NCBI GenBank assembly: GCA_049303675.1
Contig: JBAQNJ010000001.1
Location: 344,711-408,710 of the forward strand
DNA: 64,000 nt
Direction of reading: 5' to 3'
From: Microgenomates group bacterium
GTDB taxonomy: Bacteria; Patescibacteriota; Microgenomatia; UBA12405
Under the pieces are notes generated by a model. That model was not told where the DNA came from, made no database searches, and worked only from the letters and a program-made list of their open reading frames with translations. Below are positions 3,039 to 25,770 of the stretch, piece after piece (position 1 is the first letter of the stretch; every line of letters starts with the position of its first letter). The translations under genes and the position numbers were made by a program.

Positions 3039-3343
3039 TGCGGGGTAGTGTACGGCTGCACGTGAGGCTAGTAGTATGGGCCCATTAAGCGGTAACGCTT
3101 AATGCAAACTTGGCTATATCGGTGAACAACCTAATGACGATGATTTAGGTAAATACCGAGGGAACCCTTTCGATAAACTCAAGGCTATAGCCCTGAGCAC
3201 AGCGAAGGGGACTCCGTAGAGACTAGACGCCAAGCTCCTCCGATAGCTATCGGAGGATGATGATATAGTCCGACACTCTTGGTAACAAGAGATTACAGAC
3301 AGCATAATCTCACAGGCTGGGTTCAACTCCCAGCCCCGCAACA
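3039..3343 (+). ncRNA. structured RNA with a tRNA-like 3' end; tmRNA (ssrA)-like candidate
   Basis: 5' TGCGGGG (3039-3045) pairs with 3' CCCCGCA (3334-3340) across about 290 nt. T-arm CTGGG-TTCAACT-CCCAG matches the E. coli tmRNA T-loop UUCAACU. Discriminator A, then promoter upstream and a strong terminator immediately downstream; no long ORF. The acceptor lacks the G3·U70 pair and no convincing ...AA tag frame was found. Confidence 0.4.
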
Positions 3344-7092: not shown

Positions 7093-7124
7093 TTTCTTTT
7101 CTTAAATTTTCTTTGTTCTTGTTT

Positions 7125-7157
7125 CTGTTAAATTCTTAAATTCTGTTAAATTTTCTC
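7125..7157 (+). repeat. TCTGTTAAATT direct-repeat motif, copy R1
   Basis: tctgttaaattcttaaattctgttaaattttctc; near-identical to 13582-13615. Confidence 0.6.
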
Positions 7158-12333: not shown

Positions 12334-12366
12334 TCTGTTAAATTCTGTTAAATTGTTAAATTTTCC
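12334..12366 (+). repeat. TCTGTTAAATT direct-repeat motif, copy R2 (upstream of 12392 CDS)
   Basis: tctgttaaattctgttaaattgttaaattttcc. Confidence 0.6.
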
Positions 12367-12391: not shown

Positions 12392-13579
12392 ATGCCTCAG
12401 AAAAAACCGGAGTATACAGTCACTTTTGGTGGCTGGTACCAGCGCACTACTCTTCATCTCACCGAAATTTATGATCTCTTCGCTCTCGGCCGTTCTGGGC
12501 TCAAGTTAGACTCTCAGAAACTCCAAGAATTACATCAAAATCTCAAATTTGTCTCCGTCACTCGCGAATGGGGAGATTTAGAATATATCGTTTGTCAGAC
12601 TCGGGAAGGTATTGCCGTCCGCTATTACGAAGACGGACTTTATGTCCTCTCCCTCAATACCAGCGATATTGCCGCCGGCCAACATACTCTTCGTCATTAT
12701 TTTGACACTTGTCTTTCTCCCGCTATTTCCTACATATTTTCTCTTGGCGCCCCCACTCCCAAAATTCTCGCCAAAATCAAACCCGATCACCCATTCGTTG
12801 TTTCGAGTATTAGCTCCCCTTCTTCAAGGGGAGGTGGTCGCCTCAGGCGACCGGAGGGGTTTGGTCCCATTTATTCCCAAATTACCAGTTCTCATATTAC
12901 AGTCTCCAAAACACCATCCACAATTTACATTTTTTCCCCCTCAAATTTTTCTCACCTTCGCGACTTAATTGAAATGCAAATATTCTTCCGTGAGTTCAAA
13001 GATCAGCTCCATCGTTACCTCAACCTTCACCGAGAAATCTGGGAAGAAATTTCCGATATCAAGGAGAGGGGAGTTATCATCGGTACCCAAATTGAGACCC
13101 TTCGTTCCCGCCTCGACTCCTATCAGAAGACTATCAATCTCATCAAAAGTCGCCTCAATCAAATGGGCGCCTATGTCCACACCCGCGCCTCTCTGGCTCG
13201 CAAGTTGTCTCTCGAAGATCAACTGGCTTCTGTTTTCCAATACAAGTTCGAGACTCTCTCCGATACTCATTCTTATGTTCAGGAAATTTGGAAAATGACT
13301 CAGGATTATGTCGAAACGGCCATTGCTGTGGTCAATGAAGTCAAGGGTCGCAGTAGTAGCAACGGTATCAATTCTCTTCGACTAATCACCACCATTGGTG
13401 TCCTCTCGGGTATTTTTAGTTATTTGAGCAAGGATACTTTTCCCGTTTTTACCTGGATCGGTCTCTGGTACTTTCTCATTTTAGTTATCGGTACCTATCT
13501 TATTGATCAATTAGTTTCCTCAACTTACAAAAAATATCGTTATCAACTCAAGTTCGCCAACAATCAGGGAATTAAATGA
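12392..13579 (+). CDS. hypothetical protein with C-terminal TM helices, carrying an in-frame insertion of GC-hairpin element copy B
   Basis: 395 aa ORF; residues SSRGGGRLRRPEGFG are the translation of the 12825-12862 element. Confidence 0.4.
   Translation: MPQKKPEYTVTFGGWYQRTTLHLTEIYDLFALGRSGLKLDSQKLQELHQNLKFVSVTREWGDLEYIVCQTREGIAVRYYEDGLYVLSLNTSDIAAGQHTLRHYFDTCLSPAISYIFSLGAPTPKILAKIKPDHPFVVSSISSPSSRGGGRLRRPEGFGPIYSQITSSHITVSKTPSTIYIFSPSNFSHLRDLIEMQIFFREFKDQLHRYLNLHREIWEEISDIKERGVIIGTQIETLRSRLDSYQKTINLIKSRLNQMGAYVHTRASLARKLSLEDQLASVFQYKFETLSDTHSYVQEIWKMTQDYVETAIAVVNEVKGRSSSNGINSLRLITTIGVLSGIFSYLSKDTFPVFTWIGLWYFLILVIGTYLIDQLVSSTYKKYRYQLKFANNQGIK
12825..12862. repeat. GC-rich hairpin element copy B (caaggggagg-TGGTCGCCTCAGGCGACC-ggaggggttt), inside a CDS
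   Basis: Same mirror G-rich arms as copy A; central hairpin sequence differs but its pairing is preserved. Confidence 0.6.
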
Positions 13580-14685
13580 ATTCTGTTAAATTTTTAAATT
13601 CTGTTAAATTTTCTCAGTTTTTTCCCGCCATCTTTCTCATGTTCATGGGCACTGTTGGTTCAGGTATCTTTGTCCTGCCCTATTTATTTTCTCAGTCCAA
13701 TTTTATTTTTGCCTCGGTTTTTTTAGTCTTTCTGACTATCATCACTGCAGTTCTTAACCAGTTTTATGTCGCAATTGTCACCACTACTGCTGGCGATCAC
13801 CAGCTCTCTGGCTATGCCCAAAAATATTTAGGTCATCGCTTTGGACTTCTCGCCAGTCTCAACTTATTGATTCTTGCCTTTGGCGCCATTTTGGCCTATT
13901 CCAAGCTCTTTTCCGGCTTTACCCTAGTCGTTTTTCCCAATTTCTCTATTTATCTAATCTCTTTTTTATATTTATTAATCATTTTTGTTTTATTTTATTT
14001 TCACCAAATTTTATCCAAAAATATATTTCTCCTCATCCCCATTTTTATTTTAGTGGTTCCCATATTTCTTTATTTTTATTCTTTTAACTATCCACTATTA
14101 ACTATTAACTATTCACTATCAATTACCCCCTCCTTCTCCTTCTTTGGTCCTCTTCTCTTTGCCCTTTCTGGATTTACCATTATTCCCGAGGTCAGGGAAA
14201 CTCTCGGTACTCCCAAAAAGTTGTCACTAGTTGTTACCCTTGGGTTACTCTTAGTAGCCATCATTTATTTTCTCTTCGCTTTTTCTATTATCCGACTAAG
14301 TGGCGACTCCCTGAATATCGATTCGGTTACTGGGCTAGCCACCTCTTTTCCCTTATTAGCCAAATTAATCGCCATTTTTGGCATGGTAATTACTCTCCGA
14401 TCCACGGTAAACTTTATGGTCATTTTACGCGAGTTATTTTATCGTGATCTCAAGGTATCTTTACCCATAGCCAATCTATTACCATCACTCTTTCCCTTGT
14501 TGGGTTTGTTGCTGACAACAGTTTCTCTACTGACTGTCATCTCTTTGACTGGCCATTTTACTATTTTCGTCTCAGCCCTAGTTATTTGTCTTATCCGTCT
14601 GCGGCTTCCCCATAGCTTTTGGACAGAGTTTTGGGCAATATTAATTATGCTAACCCTTACCCTCGGATTAGTCATTGCCCTATGA
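13576..14685 (+). CDS. polytopic membrane transporter (APC/amino-acid-permease-like); true start probably 13639
   Basis: About 11 hydrophobic segments; GSGIFVLPY motif near the N-terminus. Confidence 0.4.
   Translation: MNSVKFLNSVKFSQFFPAIFLMFMGTVGSGIFVLPYLFSQSNFIFASVFLVFLTIITAVLNQFYVAIVTTTAGDHQLSGYAQKYLGHRFGLLASLNLLILAFGAILAYSKLFSGFTLVVFPNFSIYLISFLYLLIIFVLFYFHQILSKNIFLLIPIFILVVPIFLYFYSFNYPLLTINYSLSITPSFSFFGPLLFALSGFTIIPEVRETLGTPKKLSLVVTLGLLLVAIIYFLFAFSIIRLSGDSLNIDSVTGLATSFPLLAKLIAIFGMVITLRSTVNFMVILRELFYRDLKVSLPIANLLPSLFPLLGLLLTTVSLLTVISLTGHFTIFVSALVICLIRLRLPHSFWTEFWAILIMLTLTLGLVIAL
13582..13615 (+). repeat. TCTGTTAAATT direct-repeat motif, copy R3
   Basis: ttctgttaaatttttaaattctgttaaattttctc; lies in the annotated 5' end of ORF 13576-14685, whose real start is probably ATG 13639. 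Confidence 0.6.
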
Positions 14686-19406: not shown

Positions 19407-21215
19407 ATGGATTCCCAAGTCGCCGATATCAAGAAAAAATTGGATATCGTCGATGTCATCGGTAAATATCTACCTCTCAAAAAACGTGGCCGCCACTGGC
19501 TGGCCAATTGTCCCTTTCACGGTGAAAAAACTCCCTCTTTTACCGTCTCTGCCGAATTACAAATGTTCAAATGTTTTGGCTGTGGCAAGTCGGGGGATTT
19601 GTTCACCTTTGTCCAAGAGTTTGACCATATCGATTTTCGTGAAGCCCTCGAAGAAATGGCCAAGTTGGCTGGAGTCGAGTTAAAAAAAGATCCCCATATT
19701 ACCGCCGTCGAGAAGCTTCATCGCCGGCTTGTCGATCTAAATCAAGAAGCTTCCAAGTTTTATCACTATATGCTGACTACTCATCCACTCGGTCAGTCTG
19801 CCCTCGAATATTTGAGTGGTCGCCATATCACTCTCGACACCATTCGCCTTTTTCGTCTTGGTTTTTCACCCCAAAATCCGGAACTGGTTATCAACTATTT
19901 ACTCAAAAAGGGTTTTACCAAATCCGAATTAATTAGCAGTGGTTCTTATGGCACATCCCGTTATGGCAATAATTTATATGACCGGTTTACTGGCCGCTTA
20001 GTTTTTCCCTTGGCCGATTTTCGAGATCGGATACTCGGCTTCTCCGGTCGAATAATACCCTCACAGTCCGGTTTACCTGCCGATAGGCAGGCCAAATATA
20101 TTAATTCGCCCGAAACCGACATTTATCACAAGAGTCAGCTACTTTTTGGCCTCAATCTGAGTAAGGATAGTATTAAGAAAAATCAGAGTGTCATCATCGT
20201 CGAGGGCGAGTTTGACATGATCTCTCCCTTTACTCATGGAGTCCAAAATATTGTGGCTATCAAGGGGACTGCCTTTACTGTCGATCAATTAACCCTCTTG
20301 CACCGCTATACCGATACTCTTATTCTTGGCCTCGACTCCGATTTTGCGGGTACAGCTGCCGCTCTCAAAAGCATCGAATTAGCCGATTCTATGGGCTTTG
20401 ATATTCATGTTATTGATCTCTTGGGTCGCTACAAGGACCCCGACGAAGCCATTACCGCCGATGTCGATTTTTACAAGCAGCAGGTCGCCCATCCCATTCC
20501 CATCTGGGACTTTATTATCAATTCGGCGCTATCAAAATTTGATTATTCCACTCCTAGGGGCAAACAAGATATTTTGCGTTTGGTATTACCTTTTATTACC
20601 AAAATCAACAATTTAGTGACTCGCTCTGATTATCTTTCCAAGTTATCCTCCGCCATTGGTTCGTCTCCTGATGCTGTTATTGCCGAATCCCAAAAATACA
20701 CCAATAAACTTTCACCCCAAACTTCAAACTTAAAACCTCAAACTTCAAACTTTGCAGTTCCAGTCGCCAAAATTGACTTATTAGAATCCCATTTATTATC
20801 TCTTATTTTCTCCGCCAAAAAACCCTATCTTCTCGCCGCTAGGATCAAGGAAAAATTAGAATTCGTCACCCCTCGTTTTGTCAAGATTTTTTCAGCCCTT
20901 CTAAGACCTCGCAAAATCTTTAATCCAGTCCGTTTTGGCAGTCGTCTGCCGCCCGAACTATTATCAATTTATCAGGATATTTTTCTCAACTCCACCCGTT
21001 TCAAATTTGAGTCAAAGGATAGGTTGGTTGAGATCAACAAGACCATTAATCAAATTCTCACCCTCACACTCAAAGACAAGTTATCTGTCATTAGCTCCAA
21101 AATCGCTCAGGCCGAATCTGCCGATGACGACGAATTAGTGGCCACATTGGAAGCAGATTACAATTCCCTCCTCCACCAACTCTCGTCTATTCAGTCCACA
21201 AAAAGTAGAAATTAG
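19407..21215 (+). CDS. dnaG: DNA primase
   Basis: N-terminal zinc ribbon CPFHGEKTPSF...CFGCG, TOPRIM region EGEFD...DSD; 602 aa; upstream of rpoD. Confidence 0.85.
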   Translation: MDSQVADIKKKLDIVDVIGKYLPLKKRGRHWLANCPFHGEKTPSFTVSAELQMFKCFGCGKSGDLFTFVQEFDHIDFREALEEMAKLAGVELKKDPHITAVEKLHRRLVDLNQEASKFYHYMLTTHPLGQSALEYLSGRHITLDTIRLFRLGFSPQNPELVINYLLKKGFTKSELISSGSYGTSRYGNNLYDRFTGRLVFPLADFRDRILGFSGRIIPSQSGLPADRQAKYINSPETDIYHKSQLLFGLNLSKDSIKKNQSVIIVEGEFDMISPFTHGVQNIVAIKGTAFTVDQLTLLHRYTDTLILGLDSDFAGTAAALKSIELADSMGFDIHVIDLLGRYKDPDEAITADVDFYKQQVAHPIPIWDFIINSALSKFDYSTPRGKQDILRLVLPFITKINNLVTRSDYLSKLSSAIGSSPDAVIAESQKYTNKLSPQTSNLKPQTSNFAVPVAKIDLLESHLLSLIFSAKKPYLLAARIKEKLEFVTPRFVKIFSALLRPRKIFNPVRFGSRLPPELLSIYQDIFLNSTRFKFESKDRLVEINKTINQILTLTLKDKLSVISSKIAQAESADDDELVATLEADYNSLLHQLSSIQSTKSRN

Positions 21216-21239
21216 TATTATAGTTTGATACACTAGGCC

Positions 21240-21551
21240 ATGGCAAAAAAACTCAGGCTTGTCAGTATCGAAGGTAGAGGTTTCAGAAATAGTCCAGATG
21301 TCGATGTCATCGATGCTCCTGAATTCATTTCCTTGCGTTCACCAAAAAGTAGCGAAGAGAGACAGATGGTCATAGGTAGTGAGGCTGTCGCCGTAAAAAG
21401 GCTACCCCTAAGCAGACGCGGTTTTCCGGTGGTTGAAAAACATGGAGTAATTGGTCCTGATAAACCATTTTTTTACGATGATCGGACACTTGCCGAAATG
21501 ATTATGCATCGAGGTCGTCAGTATGCGGTTGTAGTCAAAGAAGAGGCATAG
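21240..21551 (+). CDS. hypothetical protein between dnaG and rpoD
   Basis: 103 aa ORF. Confidence 0.3.
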   Translation: MAKKLRLVSIEGRGFRNSPDVDVIDAPEFISLRSPKSSEERQMVIGSEAVAVKRLPLSRRGFPVVEKHGVIGPDKPFFYDDRTLAEMIMHRGRQYAVVVKEEA

Positions 21552-21585
21552 CTTTTTAGCCTAATTTCCTATACAATATAACCCA

Positions 21586-22671
21586 ATGCCGACCCCTCTC
21601 AATTTTTCCAAAATCAAACAGTCGTTAGTTGCCACCGCCAAGAAGCTTCGTTATCTCACCCAAGATGAAATTTTAGCCGTCGTCGCCGAGCCCGAAAAAC
21701 ATGTTGATGAAATAGATCAATTATTCGACTATCTTTTTGAAAAAGGTATCGATGTCTTTGACAAGGTCGAATCTCAGGCTCTGGCCGATGTGAAGAAAGA
21801 GAAGGCGAACAATGCCGAGCTCTTAGCCATGCTTACCCAGAAAAATACAGTAGATTCGGTGCGCATGTATTTGAAGGAAATTGGCAAAATCGATCTTTTG
21901 ACCTTTGCCCAAGAAGTCGAGTATGCCAAGGCTATCGAGAAGGGATCCGACGAAGCCCGTGCCAATTTAATCAATGCCAATTTACGTCTCGTAGTCTCCA
22001 TTGCCAAAAAATATATTGGTCGCGGTCTCTCTTTTTTGGATCTAGTTCAAGAGGGGAATCAGGGTCTAATGCGTGCCGTCGAAAAATTTGATTGGAAGCG
22101 AGGATTCAAATTTAGTACTTATGCCACATGGTGGATTCGTCAGGCGATTACTCGGGCTATTGCCGATCAAGCCAAGACCATTCGTATTCCGGTTCACATG
22201 GTCGAGACAATCAACAAAGTATACAAAGCCACCCGTGCTCTCACTCAGCGATTAGGCCACGAGCCGGCCATCGAGCAAATTGCCGATGAAGTCGGTATCA
22301 CTGTTGAAAAAGTCGAAGAGATATATCGTATCTCACAGGACACTACTTCACTGGCCACTCCCGTCGGCGATGATGAGGATTCATTTTTGGGCGATTTTAT
22401 CGAAGATACTACCCAGCTCTCTCCTTACGAAGAGACTAGTATGGAGTTGCTGCGCGAATCCATCGAAGAAGTCTTAGAATCTCTGGATGAGCGCGAATCA
22501 AAAGTTCTCTCACTCCGCTTTGGGCTGATGGGCGAGACACCCAAGACTCTCGAAGAAGTCGGCAAAATTTTCAATGTCACTCGCGAGCGTATTCGTCAAA
22601 TCGAAGCCAAGGCTCTTAGAAAATTAAGACATCCATCACGTAGAAAGAAACTCCAAGATTACCTAGAGTAA
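21586..22671 (+). CDS. rpoD: RNA polymerase sigma-70 factor
   Basis: Region 2 [24 protein letters not shown]; region 4 [29 protein letters not shown]. Confidence 0.85.
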
Positions 22672-24760: not shown

Positions 24761-25051
24761 ATGACCACTATGAATATCTCAGTTACCGAGGAACAAGCCA
24801 AGTTTATTGACCAAATTGCGGCCAAATTTAATTTTAGTAATCGTAGTGAATTATTTCGCTCCTTTTTACGTCTATTGCAACAGCAACCAAACCTTATTGC
24901 AGAATCAGCCACCACCCCATTTATATCGCCACCTACGCGAAGTCTGTCGGAGGTAATTAATGGTCTAAAACAAACAGGCAAATACTCTTCTGAGTTTTTA
25001 AAAGATATGGAAGACGGGCTCAAGGATAGTCTATACTTTAATGAGAAATGA
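24761..25051 (+). CDS. ribbon-helix-helix (CopG/ParD-like) antitoxin
   Basis: 96 aa; MNISVTEEQAKFIDQ...NRSELFRSFLRLL pattern; overlaps the downstream toxin ORF. Confidence 0.45.
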   Translation: MTTMNISVTEEQAKFIDQIAAKFNFSNRSELFRSFLRLLQQQPNLIAESATTPFISPPTRSLSEVINGLKQTGKYSSEFLKDMEDGLKDSLYFNEK

Positions 25052-25247
25052 TTATTCTGCCCTTAAATCCAAAGAGTCACTACTATTCCTGTCCAACATC
25101 TACCATCCAAGCTTAAATTTTGAGTTATTAGAACCAAGAGAATTGGGAAATTACAGCTTTAGACTGGATATTCATTATCGGGTAATTTTCATTTTCCACA
25201 CGTCAGAGATTGTCGAAATCATCTCCATCACCAACCATTATCGCTAA
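25041..25247 (+). CDS. RelE/ParE-family toxin
   Basis: 68 aa; ...FRLDIHYRVIFIFHTSEIVEIISITNH typical RelE/ParE C-terminus. Confidence 0.45.
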   Translation: MRNDYSALKSKESLLFLSNIYHPSLNFELLEPRELGNYSFRLDIHYRVIFIFHTSEIVEIISITNHYR

Positions 25248-25358
25248 AGACTATTTTTTTAGCTTAAATTATTCTATAATCAGACCTGTCCTTCGCTCTT
25301 TTAAATCTTATGTCAGTTCGACTGTTAACTGTTTTCTGTTAACCGACAACTGACTTAT

Positions 25359-25690
25359 TCCCCTGTAGCTCAATGGTAGAGTGCCCGCCTGTTCCTTATC
25401 GAGCAGCTTTTTATCGTAAGGTAGATCGAATAATTGGGAGAATTGCGTGAAACCTAACTTTTGAAGTAATTCAAAACATGGCAACCCGCAGCCGCGCTTT
25501 TGTCAAGACAATGGAGGGCTTTGCCACTCCGAAGCCTTGGCGAAGGAGGGTTCAGAGACTAGGTGATTACACCCTAGAGCACCCAAATCCCGATGAAATA
25601 TCGGGATATGATATAGTCCAAGCCTCATAGAAATTTGAGGGTTACTTGTAAGCGGTTGGTTCGTGGTCCGAGTCCACGCGGGGGAGCCAT
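25359..25690 (+). tRNA. tRNA-Asn(GTT) interrupted by a group I intron (exons 25359-25392 and 25650-25690, CCA encoded)
   Basis: 5' half TCCCCTG-TA-GCTC-AATGGTA-GAGT-G-CCCGC-CTGT; 3' half TAA-GCGGT-TGGTT-CGTGG-TCCGAGT-CCACG-CGGGGGA-G-CCA. Spliced anticodon loop CUGUUAA. Acceptor and discriminator G resemble bacterial tRNA-Asn. Confidence 0.7.
25393..25649 (+). ncRNA. group I self-splicing intron (257 nt) in the tRNA anticodon loop
   Basis: 5' exon ends in U and the intron ends in G. P7-like strands GUUCAGAGACUAG ... AUAUAGUCCAAGCC resemble cyanobacterial tRNA-Leu introns. Candidate internal guide sequence GAGCAGC pairs with the exon end CUGU. Confidence 0.65.
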
Positions 25691-25770
25691 CATCACTTTG
25701 ATAAACCCTATAATATTGACAAATCACCAGTTTATAGCTAAAATACCTCAGTTAATACCTAGTCTCAACT

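Follow-up and report, generated by a model that had tools for sequence, protein, structure and literature searches.

The reading of the DNA that best accounts for all the evidence is that positions 25359-25689 (+ strand) of the 64,000-nucleotide (nt) Microgenomates stretch presented above, referred to here at its full length as the window, hold a transfer RNA gene for asparagine, tRNA-Asn(GUU), interrupted between tRNA positions 35 and 36 (35/36) by a predicted self-splicing group I intron. We put the probability of this reading at about 0.9, and the locus is real and probably functional. An earlier reading, made from the sequence alone, had already proposed a tRNA-Asn(GUU) split in its anticodon loop by a group I intron; the proposal is borne out by a match to the Rfam model RF00028 (60.1 bits), by the isotype that the program ARAGORN assigns to the spliced form, by covariation and by homology. 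Two of its measurements need a small correction: the intron is 256 nt long (25393-25648), not 257, and the gene ends at 25689, not at 25690.

What does the gene look like once the intron is taken out? When 25359-25392 and 25649-25689 are joined, the result is a 75-nt cloverleaf, called tRNA-Asn(gtt) by ARAGORN, in which the acceptor, D, anticodon and T stems are all paired. The details listed by the sequence-only reading can be read directly in the DNA: an acceptor stem UCCCCUG/CGGGGGA, a T stem CGUGG/CCACG, an anticodon loop that becomes CUGUUAA after joining, a discriminator G (G25686) and an encoded CCA (25687-25689). The first exon stops at U35 (25392) and the second restarts at U36 (25649), so that the insertion lies, as had been stated, one position 3' of 34/35.

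As for the isotype, overall identity to intron-less tRNAs is uninformative, since just 25 such tRNAs are present in the fetched loci; the assignment rests instead on identity elements and on published tRNA-Asn sequences. One of these elements is G73, an identity element for asparaginyl-tRNA synthetase. The window tRNA combines G73 with U1-A72, the same as an intron-less tRNA-Asn in one retrieved locus, and its spliced form is 86% identical to a published Microgenomatia tRNA-Asn.

The evidence for the intron begins with the Rfam search that the sequence-only reading had named as a check: RF00028 matches 25381-25640 (+) with 60.1 bits, above the gathering score of 50, at an E-value of 9e-13 over the whole window and of 6.7e-15 in a local search. 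The ends of the intron follow from the geometry of its first helix. Within the 6-base-pair P1, the wobble pair U25392•G25403 marks the 5' splice site (written ↓ below), and, given P1, G25648 is the only G that restores a 7-nt anticodon loop, joining the exons as CUGU-UAA. This G is the last base of the intron and is followed by UAAGCGG. The intron does start after an exon U and end in G, as had been claimed, and the internal guide is also found where it was proposed, with GAGCAG (25401-25406) pairing with CUGU↓UC (25389-25394).

Most of the helices (Table 1) are recovered by an unconstrained minimum free energy (MFE) fold. P7 crosses P3 in this intron, as in every group I core, and a nested fold therefore cannot show it; its two strands, the R and S elements, are placed by the Rfam alignment and by homologs. 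The P7 helix forms the guanosine-binding site. Two regions depart from the Rfam model. The P6 region carries a 56-nt insert relative to it, and a short hairpin follows P7 at the spot where subgroup IA introns carry the helices P7.1 and P7.2. In the window intron this hairpin is a single helix, and it is kept in 9-10 close relatives and in a published Microgenomatia intron.

Table 1. Parts of the split tRNA-Asn gene in the window, with the basis for placing each of them.
Feature	Positions	Strand	Basis and remarks
5' exon, tRNA positions 1-35	25359-25392	+	ARAGORN on the spliced sequence; end at U25392 set by P1; acceptor 5' strand, D arm, anticodon stem 5' strand, loop C32 U33 G34 U35
Group I intron, 256 nt, without an open reading frame of its own	25393-25648	+	RF00028; bounds from the P1 U•G wobble and the terminal G
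P1, CUGU↓UC / internal guide GAGCAG	25389-25394 / 25401-25406	+	MFE fold and homologs
Candidate P10 strand CUUA, in the P1 loop	25395-25398	+	Complementary to the 3'-exon start UAAG (25649-25652); by sequence only
P2, 6-base-pair hairpin with a GUAA (GNRA) tetraloop	25410-25425	+	MFE fold; homologs
P3, UUGGG / CCCAA	25434-25438 / 25582-25586	+	MFE fold; alignment of the close subfamily
P4, enclosing P5 and P5a	25444-25449 / 25485-25490	+	MFE fold
P5	25453-25454 / 25480-25481	+	MFE fold
P5a, GUAA loop	25459-25465 / 25470-25476	+	MFE fold
P6 with a lineage-specific extension of ~40 nt	25491-25550	+	MFE fold; alignment gaps in all relatives
P7, R element GAGACUA (A25556 bulged) / S element UAGUCC	25555-25561 / 25614-25619	+	Rfam alignment, homologs
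Extra hairpin GGUG-AUUA-CACC, P7.1-like, between P7 and P3'	25562-25573	+	16-nt insert relative to the Rfam model
P8 hairpin, core CCCGAU/AUCGGG	25587-25607	+	MFE fold
P9 hairpin, CCUCA/UGAGG, loop containing GAAA	25623-25640	+	MFE fold
Terminal guanosine (omega G), preceding the 3' splice site	25648	+	Sequence
3' exon	25649-25689	+	Sequence, ARAGORN on the spliced form; U36 A37 A38, anticodon stem 3' strand, variable loop, T arm, acceptor 3' strand, G73, CCA

The fold can also be judged from its relatives. A scan of a genome collection with one pattern (R element, S element, G↓UAA, T loop and GGAG) returned at least 120 loci. The 122 stretches compared are the matches listed, counting in the window and the window's own locus on a public contig of 998 kb (L001, JBAQFH010000001.1, GCA_049287145.1). 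Among these stretches, 105 of the 122 have a matching 5' exon that ends in CUGU where required, and share the junction CUGU↓...G↓UAA. The fold was tested on a MAFFT alignment of 88 introns and again on the 10 closest sequences.

In the alignment of 88 introns, 82% of the cells are paired; sliding the partner strand by 1-3 columns lowers this to 34-41%. Changes on both sides of a pair occur in 647 cells, against 239 in shuffles, and none of 500 shuffles matches the covariation score. The search pattern itself fixes the terminal G and five of the six pairs in P7, so that conservation there is not independent evidence; the outer G-C pair of P7 lies outside the pattern and is present in 88 of 88. 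The U•G pair of P1 is likewise found in all 88 homologs, where the first intron base covaries with its P1 partner through six pair types. P2 is paired in 97% of cells, all six of its pairs have changed on both sides, and the G..AA of its loop is almost invariant. Over this alignment and that of the close subset, P4 and P5 are 97-100% paired with compensatory changes; for P9 the figures are 84% in the 88 introns and 96% in the subset, and 4-5 of its pairs show such changes.

The variable part of the core behaves differently. P3, P7.1 and P8 are only 18-48% paired in the 88-sequence alignment, because MAFFT misaligns this region across distant subfamilies. In the 10 closest sequences 94% of the cells are paired, against 35-46% after sliding, and P3 pairs in full (100%), two of its positions showing compensatory changes. 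P8 reaches 67% in the alignment of this subset, which is disturbed by length variation, and its pairing is visible by eye in the relatives. Where the other 87 introns are at least 90% conserved (51 columns), the window intron matches the consensus at 49.

Several observations give mild grounds for doubt about a functional split tRNA-Asn gene of the kind described here. The ~40-nt extension of P6 is not found in relatives, and the departures from the intron consensus lie at 25494-25495, where this private insertion starts. In the tRNA itself, the T loop (25667-25673) reads UCCGAGU, with a C at position 55 where U (pseudouridine) is near-universal; apart from the window's own locus, such a loop occurs in only two of the 105 listed tRNA-Asn sequences (loci L084 and L121). 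A C×U mismatch occupies tRNA positions 27/43, and a sigma-70-like promoter was looked for directly upstream of the gene and not found. An intron-less second tRNA-Asn gene is possible outside the 64-kb window. Finally, the putative placement of the intron in subgroup IA rests on the extra hairpin and on homology.

Some of these peculiarities can be read in another way. Perhaps the Microgenomates copy is a distinct structural variant, marked by one post-P7 hairpin instead of two, the ~40-nt extra P6 domain and the rare C55 T loop, in which splicing that depends on guanosine nucleotides serves as a checkpoint on the only tRNA-Asn of the cell. We consider this combination unlikely; a regulatory role of tRNA-Asn introns at the RNA level is offered only as speculation by Nakagawa et al. 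(PMC13011429).

Could the gene instead be a decaying copy, with an intron that splices poorly or a tRNA that does not function, while another gene supplies tRNA-Asn? The C55 T loop, the mismatch at 27/43, the two altered conserved positions in P6 and its private insertion would all be in keeping with decay, and of a genome of 1 Mb or more the window covers 64 kb. On the other side, the core helices are all intact, the intron agrees with the consensus at 49 of the 51 highly conserved columns, all four tRNA stems (acceptor, D, anticodon, T) are paired, CCA is encoded, and no other tRNA-Asn was found within the 64-kb window. Taken together, these points make decay a quite improbable explanation.

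A further question is where the intron comes from. The sequence-only reading had stressed its likeness to the cyanobacterial tRNA-Leu(UAA) intron, and one could imagine that a member of the cyanobacterial and plastid IC3 lineage of tRNA introns has moved into a new tRNA host. The R and S strands do resemble those of the Nostoc tRNA-Leu intron, with CAGAGACU and AGUCCAA in common, and the overall alignment to the intron of Nostoc PCC 7120 is above chance (z = 3.9, computed against shuffles like the other z values given here). This likeness is sound for the R and S strands, which are widely shared, and does not extend beyond them. The hairpin between P7 and P3' is absent from the Nostoc intron, and the segment from P7 to the S element measures 49 nt in the window intron against 36 nt in Nostoc (36-37 nt with the window's second intron, in a CAU tRNA, included). 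Alignments to Patescibacteria tRNA-Asn introns are better, with z = 5.8-8.4, and the insertion lies at 35/36 of tRNA-Asn rather than at 34/35 of tRNA-Leu(UAA). In the published survey, subgroup IA accounts for 25 of the 28 introns at 35/36, and none of the Patescibacteria tRNA introns is assigned to IC (PMC13011429). An IC3 origin is accordingly very unlikely, and no close kinship links the intron to the cyanobacterial tRNA-Leu IC3 intron.

Least credible of all is the tRNA-Thr(UGU) that ARAGORN reports, with a 256-nt insert lying two bases further 5', when introns are allowed: the short repeat UGUU/UUGU shared by the two junctions, which gives a 7-nt loop under either reading, accounts for this choice on the native sequence, and the Thr call is rejected on group I splice rules and on comparison with homologs. 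The Thr junction would put C ahead of the 5' splice site and again at the intron's 3' terminus, where group I introns have U at -1 and a terminal G, and it ignores P1, in which U25392 faces G25403. Only 15 of the 105 listed homologous introns end in UUG and so allow Thr, whereas all 105 fit Asn. U1-A72 and G73 agree with the intron-less tRNA-Asn, unlike the G1-C72 and U73 of the tRNA-Thr in a retrieved locus. The same miscall by ARAGORN and tFind has been documented and disproved by sequencing of the spliced product (Nakagawa et al., PMC13011429).

If the tRNA-Asn reading is correct, the splicing of this gene can be pictured from the anatomy of the intron and from its homologs; for this copy, the fold, the splice-site geometry and the homology are what has been computed. 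The gene would be transcribed as a precursor of ~331 nt, whose intron folds into the P1-P9 core. The guide GAGCAG would pair with the exon end CUGU and the first two intron bases, forming P1 and presenting U25392•G25403 at the cleavage site. A free guanosine held in the P7 pocket would then attack after U25392, and the terminal G25648 would replace it in the pocket. The start of the 3' exon, UAAG, may be aligned through P10 pairing with CUUA of the P1 loop, and ligation of the exons would restore the loop CUGUUAA.

Since the intron lacks a homing endonuclease gene, it is probably inherited vertically rather than mobile. Two open reading frames (ORFs), of 74 and 50 amino acids (aa), overlap it, and a Pfam search of both returned no match. 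The 74-aa ORF at 25503-25727 (-) had been dismissed as spurious by the sequence-only reading, and this judgement stands; the accompanying statement that it lies inside the intron does not, given that it spans part of the intron, the 3' exon and 38 nt beyond. The 50-aa ORF is a + strand public gene call at about 25478-25630 (2193-2345 in L001), located wholly within the intron, and probably represents a spurious call that arose because the intron had gone unrecognised.

These calls point to what is mainly a practical value of the locus, because standard annotation misses the split tRNA-Asn gene. In its default mode ARAGORN finds no tRNA at 25359-25689, in intron mode it labels the 75-nt tRNA with its 256-nt insert as Thr(UGU), and a public gene call sets the 50-aa ORF inside the intron. 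As a consequence, the genome would seem to lack tRNA-Asn and would receive a lower completeness score.

The host of the gene is a bacterium of the Patescibacteria, or candidate phyla radiation, as follows from two facts: NCBI names the proteins of the window 'MAG: ... [Microgenomates group bacterium]', where MAG stands for metagenome-assembled genome, and the RpoD it encodes shares 93% identity with its counterpart in a Candidatus Shapirobacteria MAG (L015). The genes dnaG and rpoD (19407-22671, +) lie 3-6 kb upstream of the split tRNA-Asn gene. Both also occur within 8-kb stretches around the split tRNA-Asn in many Patescibacteria loci (for instance L013, L015, L005, L087 and L114), which suggests that the neighbourhood of dnaG, rpoD and tRNA-Asn is conserved.

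How widespread are such genes? At least 103 further split tRNA-Asn 35/36 genes are confirmed among the matches listed (loci L003-L122). By record title, these matches include 52 Patescibacteria, 12 Omnitrophota, 8 Gammaproteobacteria/Pseudomonadales, 6 Planctomycetes, 5 filamentous cyanobacteria and 4 Chloroflexota. The matches listed suggest that 35/36 introns of tRNA-Asn are frequent beyond Patescibacteria, with hosts among Omnitrophota, Planctomycetes and Chloroflexota. The published hosts outside Patescibacteria, drawn from complete genomes, are Cyanobacteriota, Nitrospirota, Bacillota_A, Bipolaricaulota and Pseudomonadota (PMC13011429), so that the host range in the listed matches is wider than that of the complete-genome census. 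Some of the taxon labels look doubtful. The intron of one locus labelled Pseudomonadales (L114) has a Microgenomates-like hairpin of the P7.1 type, and one listed contig, binned as Methanosarcinales, is probably a mis-binned bacterial contig.

The listed introns also differ in length. Fifteen of the 105 form a class of 511-576 nt, ~300 nt longer than the rest, with members in Patescibacteria, Omnitrophota and Planctomycetes, and they probably carry homing endonuclease genes, which by the published account would be of the HNH family (PMC13011429).

Other features of the window deserve mention. A second intron-split tRNA, with the anticodon CAU, lies at 3039-3342 (+) and contains a 233-nt group I intron (3070-3302, Rfam 78.6 bits) at 33/34. 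No hairpin separates P7 from P3' in this intron, and the exons are nearly identical to the 'Met (CAT) 33/34' genes published for a pair of Microgenomatia genomes. With U1-A72, an anticodon stem that lacks the three G-C pairs and no encoded CCA, the tRNA is ambiguous as to its status as initiator or elongator. A tRNA-Ile(UAU), uncommon in bacteria, adjoins a tRNA-Met(CAU) (1912-1986 and 2061-2135, both on the - strand); given this tRNA-Ile(UAU), AUA may be read without a lysidine-modified CAU tRNA.

Another feature is a repeat. The TTCTGTTAAATT unit is present on the + strand as closely spaced direct repeats at 7123-7152, 12334-12362 and 13579-13612, and two copies of CTGTTAAC, at 25322 and 25336 (25322-25343), stand a short way upstream of the tRNA-Asn gene. 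Over the whole window, CTGTTAA is found 10 times on the + strand and once on the - strand. The repeat (TTCTGTTAAATT/CTGTTAAC) could be a regulator-binding or promoter-type motif. The match of CTGTTAAC to the ligated anticodon loop looks coincidental, and a link between the heptamer and the intron was rejected on two grounds: it is part of a wider repeat elsewhere in the window, and it is present in the upstream 150 nt of only 3 of the 99 other homolog loci tested.

Also just upstream of the tRNA gene is a 68-aa ORF (25041-25247, +), whose similarity to HigB-like toxins is weak and falls below the threshold (22.7 bits where 27 are required, E = 1.4e-4). The end of a 96-aa ORF (24761-25051) reaches into it, and the two may form a toxin-antitoxin pair.

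How does the split tRNA-Asn gene compare with systems already described? The sequence-only reading knew of no tRNA-Asn host for such introns, and on this point the literature corrects it. Williams (bioRxiv 2020, 10.1101/2020.01.27.920355) extended the four classical types of intron-split bacterial tRNA to 21 cases with tFind, and as cited by Nakagawa et al. (PMC13011429) these include a tRNA-Asn intron class named 'Asn.4Ug'. Nakagawa et al. (mSystems 2026, PMC13011429; preprint July 2025) then reported 22 intron-split tRNA genes in 95 complete Patescibacteria genomes; 15 of the 22 are tRNA-Asn(GUU) genes with a 35/36 intron, the commonest tRNA intron in Patescibacteria, so that the same site, in the same phylum, has been described together with splicing assays. 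The intron of GCA_016700035.1 self-splices precisely at 35/36 in vitro, as sequencing of the product confirmed, and a mutant with its terminal G changed to C stalls at the intron-3' exon intermediate, with exon ligation blocked (PMC13011429). According to the same authors, Thr(UGU) at 33/34 is a frequent misassignment of these genes by ARAGORN and tFind (PMC13011429). The genome that contains the window is not in their tables.

Comparison with sequences from Tables S3 and S4 of the same paper (PMC13011429) shows how close the window intron is to this class. Over aligned positions, its identity to four published tRNA-Asn introns is 76-79%, the highest value being that for the GCA_016700035.1 intron, which was spliced in vitro (79%, z = 8.4); the published Microgenomatia tRNA-Asn intron gives z = 5.8. 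The tRNA, the site, the phylum, the U at -1, the terminal G and the GCAG core of the guide are the same, as are the lack of an endonuclease ORF, shared with most members, and the Thr(UGU) miscall by ARAGORN. It differs in its private P6 extension of ~40 nt and in the C55 T loop of its tRNA. After P7, the published Microgenomatia intron shows the same hairpin (GGUGAGUACACC) and then another, of which the window intron has only the first. P7.1 and P7.2 are the helices used for assignment to subgroup IA (PMC3428280), and from sequence and predicted structure we infer that the window intron belongs to the Patescibacteria tRNA-Asn 35/36 lineage and is of IA type.

More distant systems share some of these traits. 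The cyanobacterial tRNA-Leu(UAA) intron, too, sits in an anticodon loop: it is a group I intron of ~250 nt that self-splices, as predicted for the window intron, has no ORF and carries similar R and S strands. The Nostoc representative differs in its 34/35 site, in having no hairpin between P7 and P3', and in its P7 pairing, which is ACUC/GAGU instead of ACUA/UAGU. The introns of Azoarcus tRNA-Ile(CAU) and Agrobacterium tRNA-Arg(CCU) are IC3 introns of proteobacterial hosts that have no P7.1, and in both the exon U pairs with a guide G. They are inserted 3' of the anticodon, at 36/37 (site list in PMC13011429). Extra helices after P7 are found in the IA2 introns of phages (T4 td, Twort, the Pf-WMP3 DNA polymerase gene), which differ from the window intron in their protein-coding hosts, their frequent endonuclease ORFs and their two post-P7 helices instead of one. 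The arrangement in the window is already known from the papers of 2020-2026, and to that record the locus adds one Microgenomates example.

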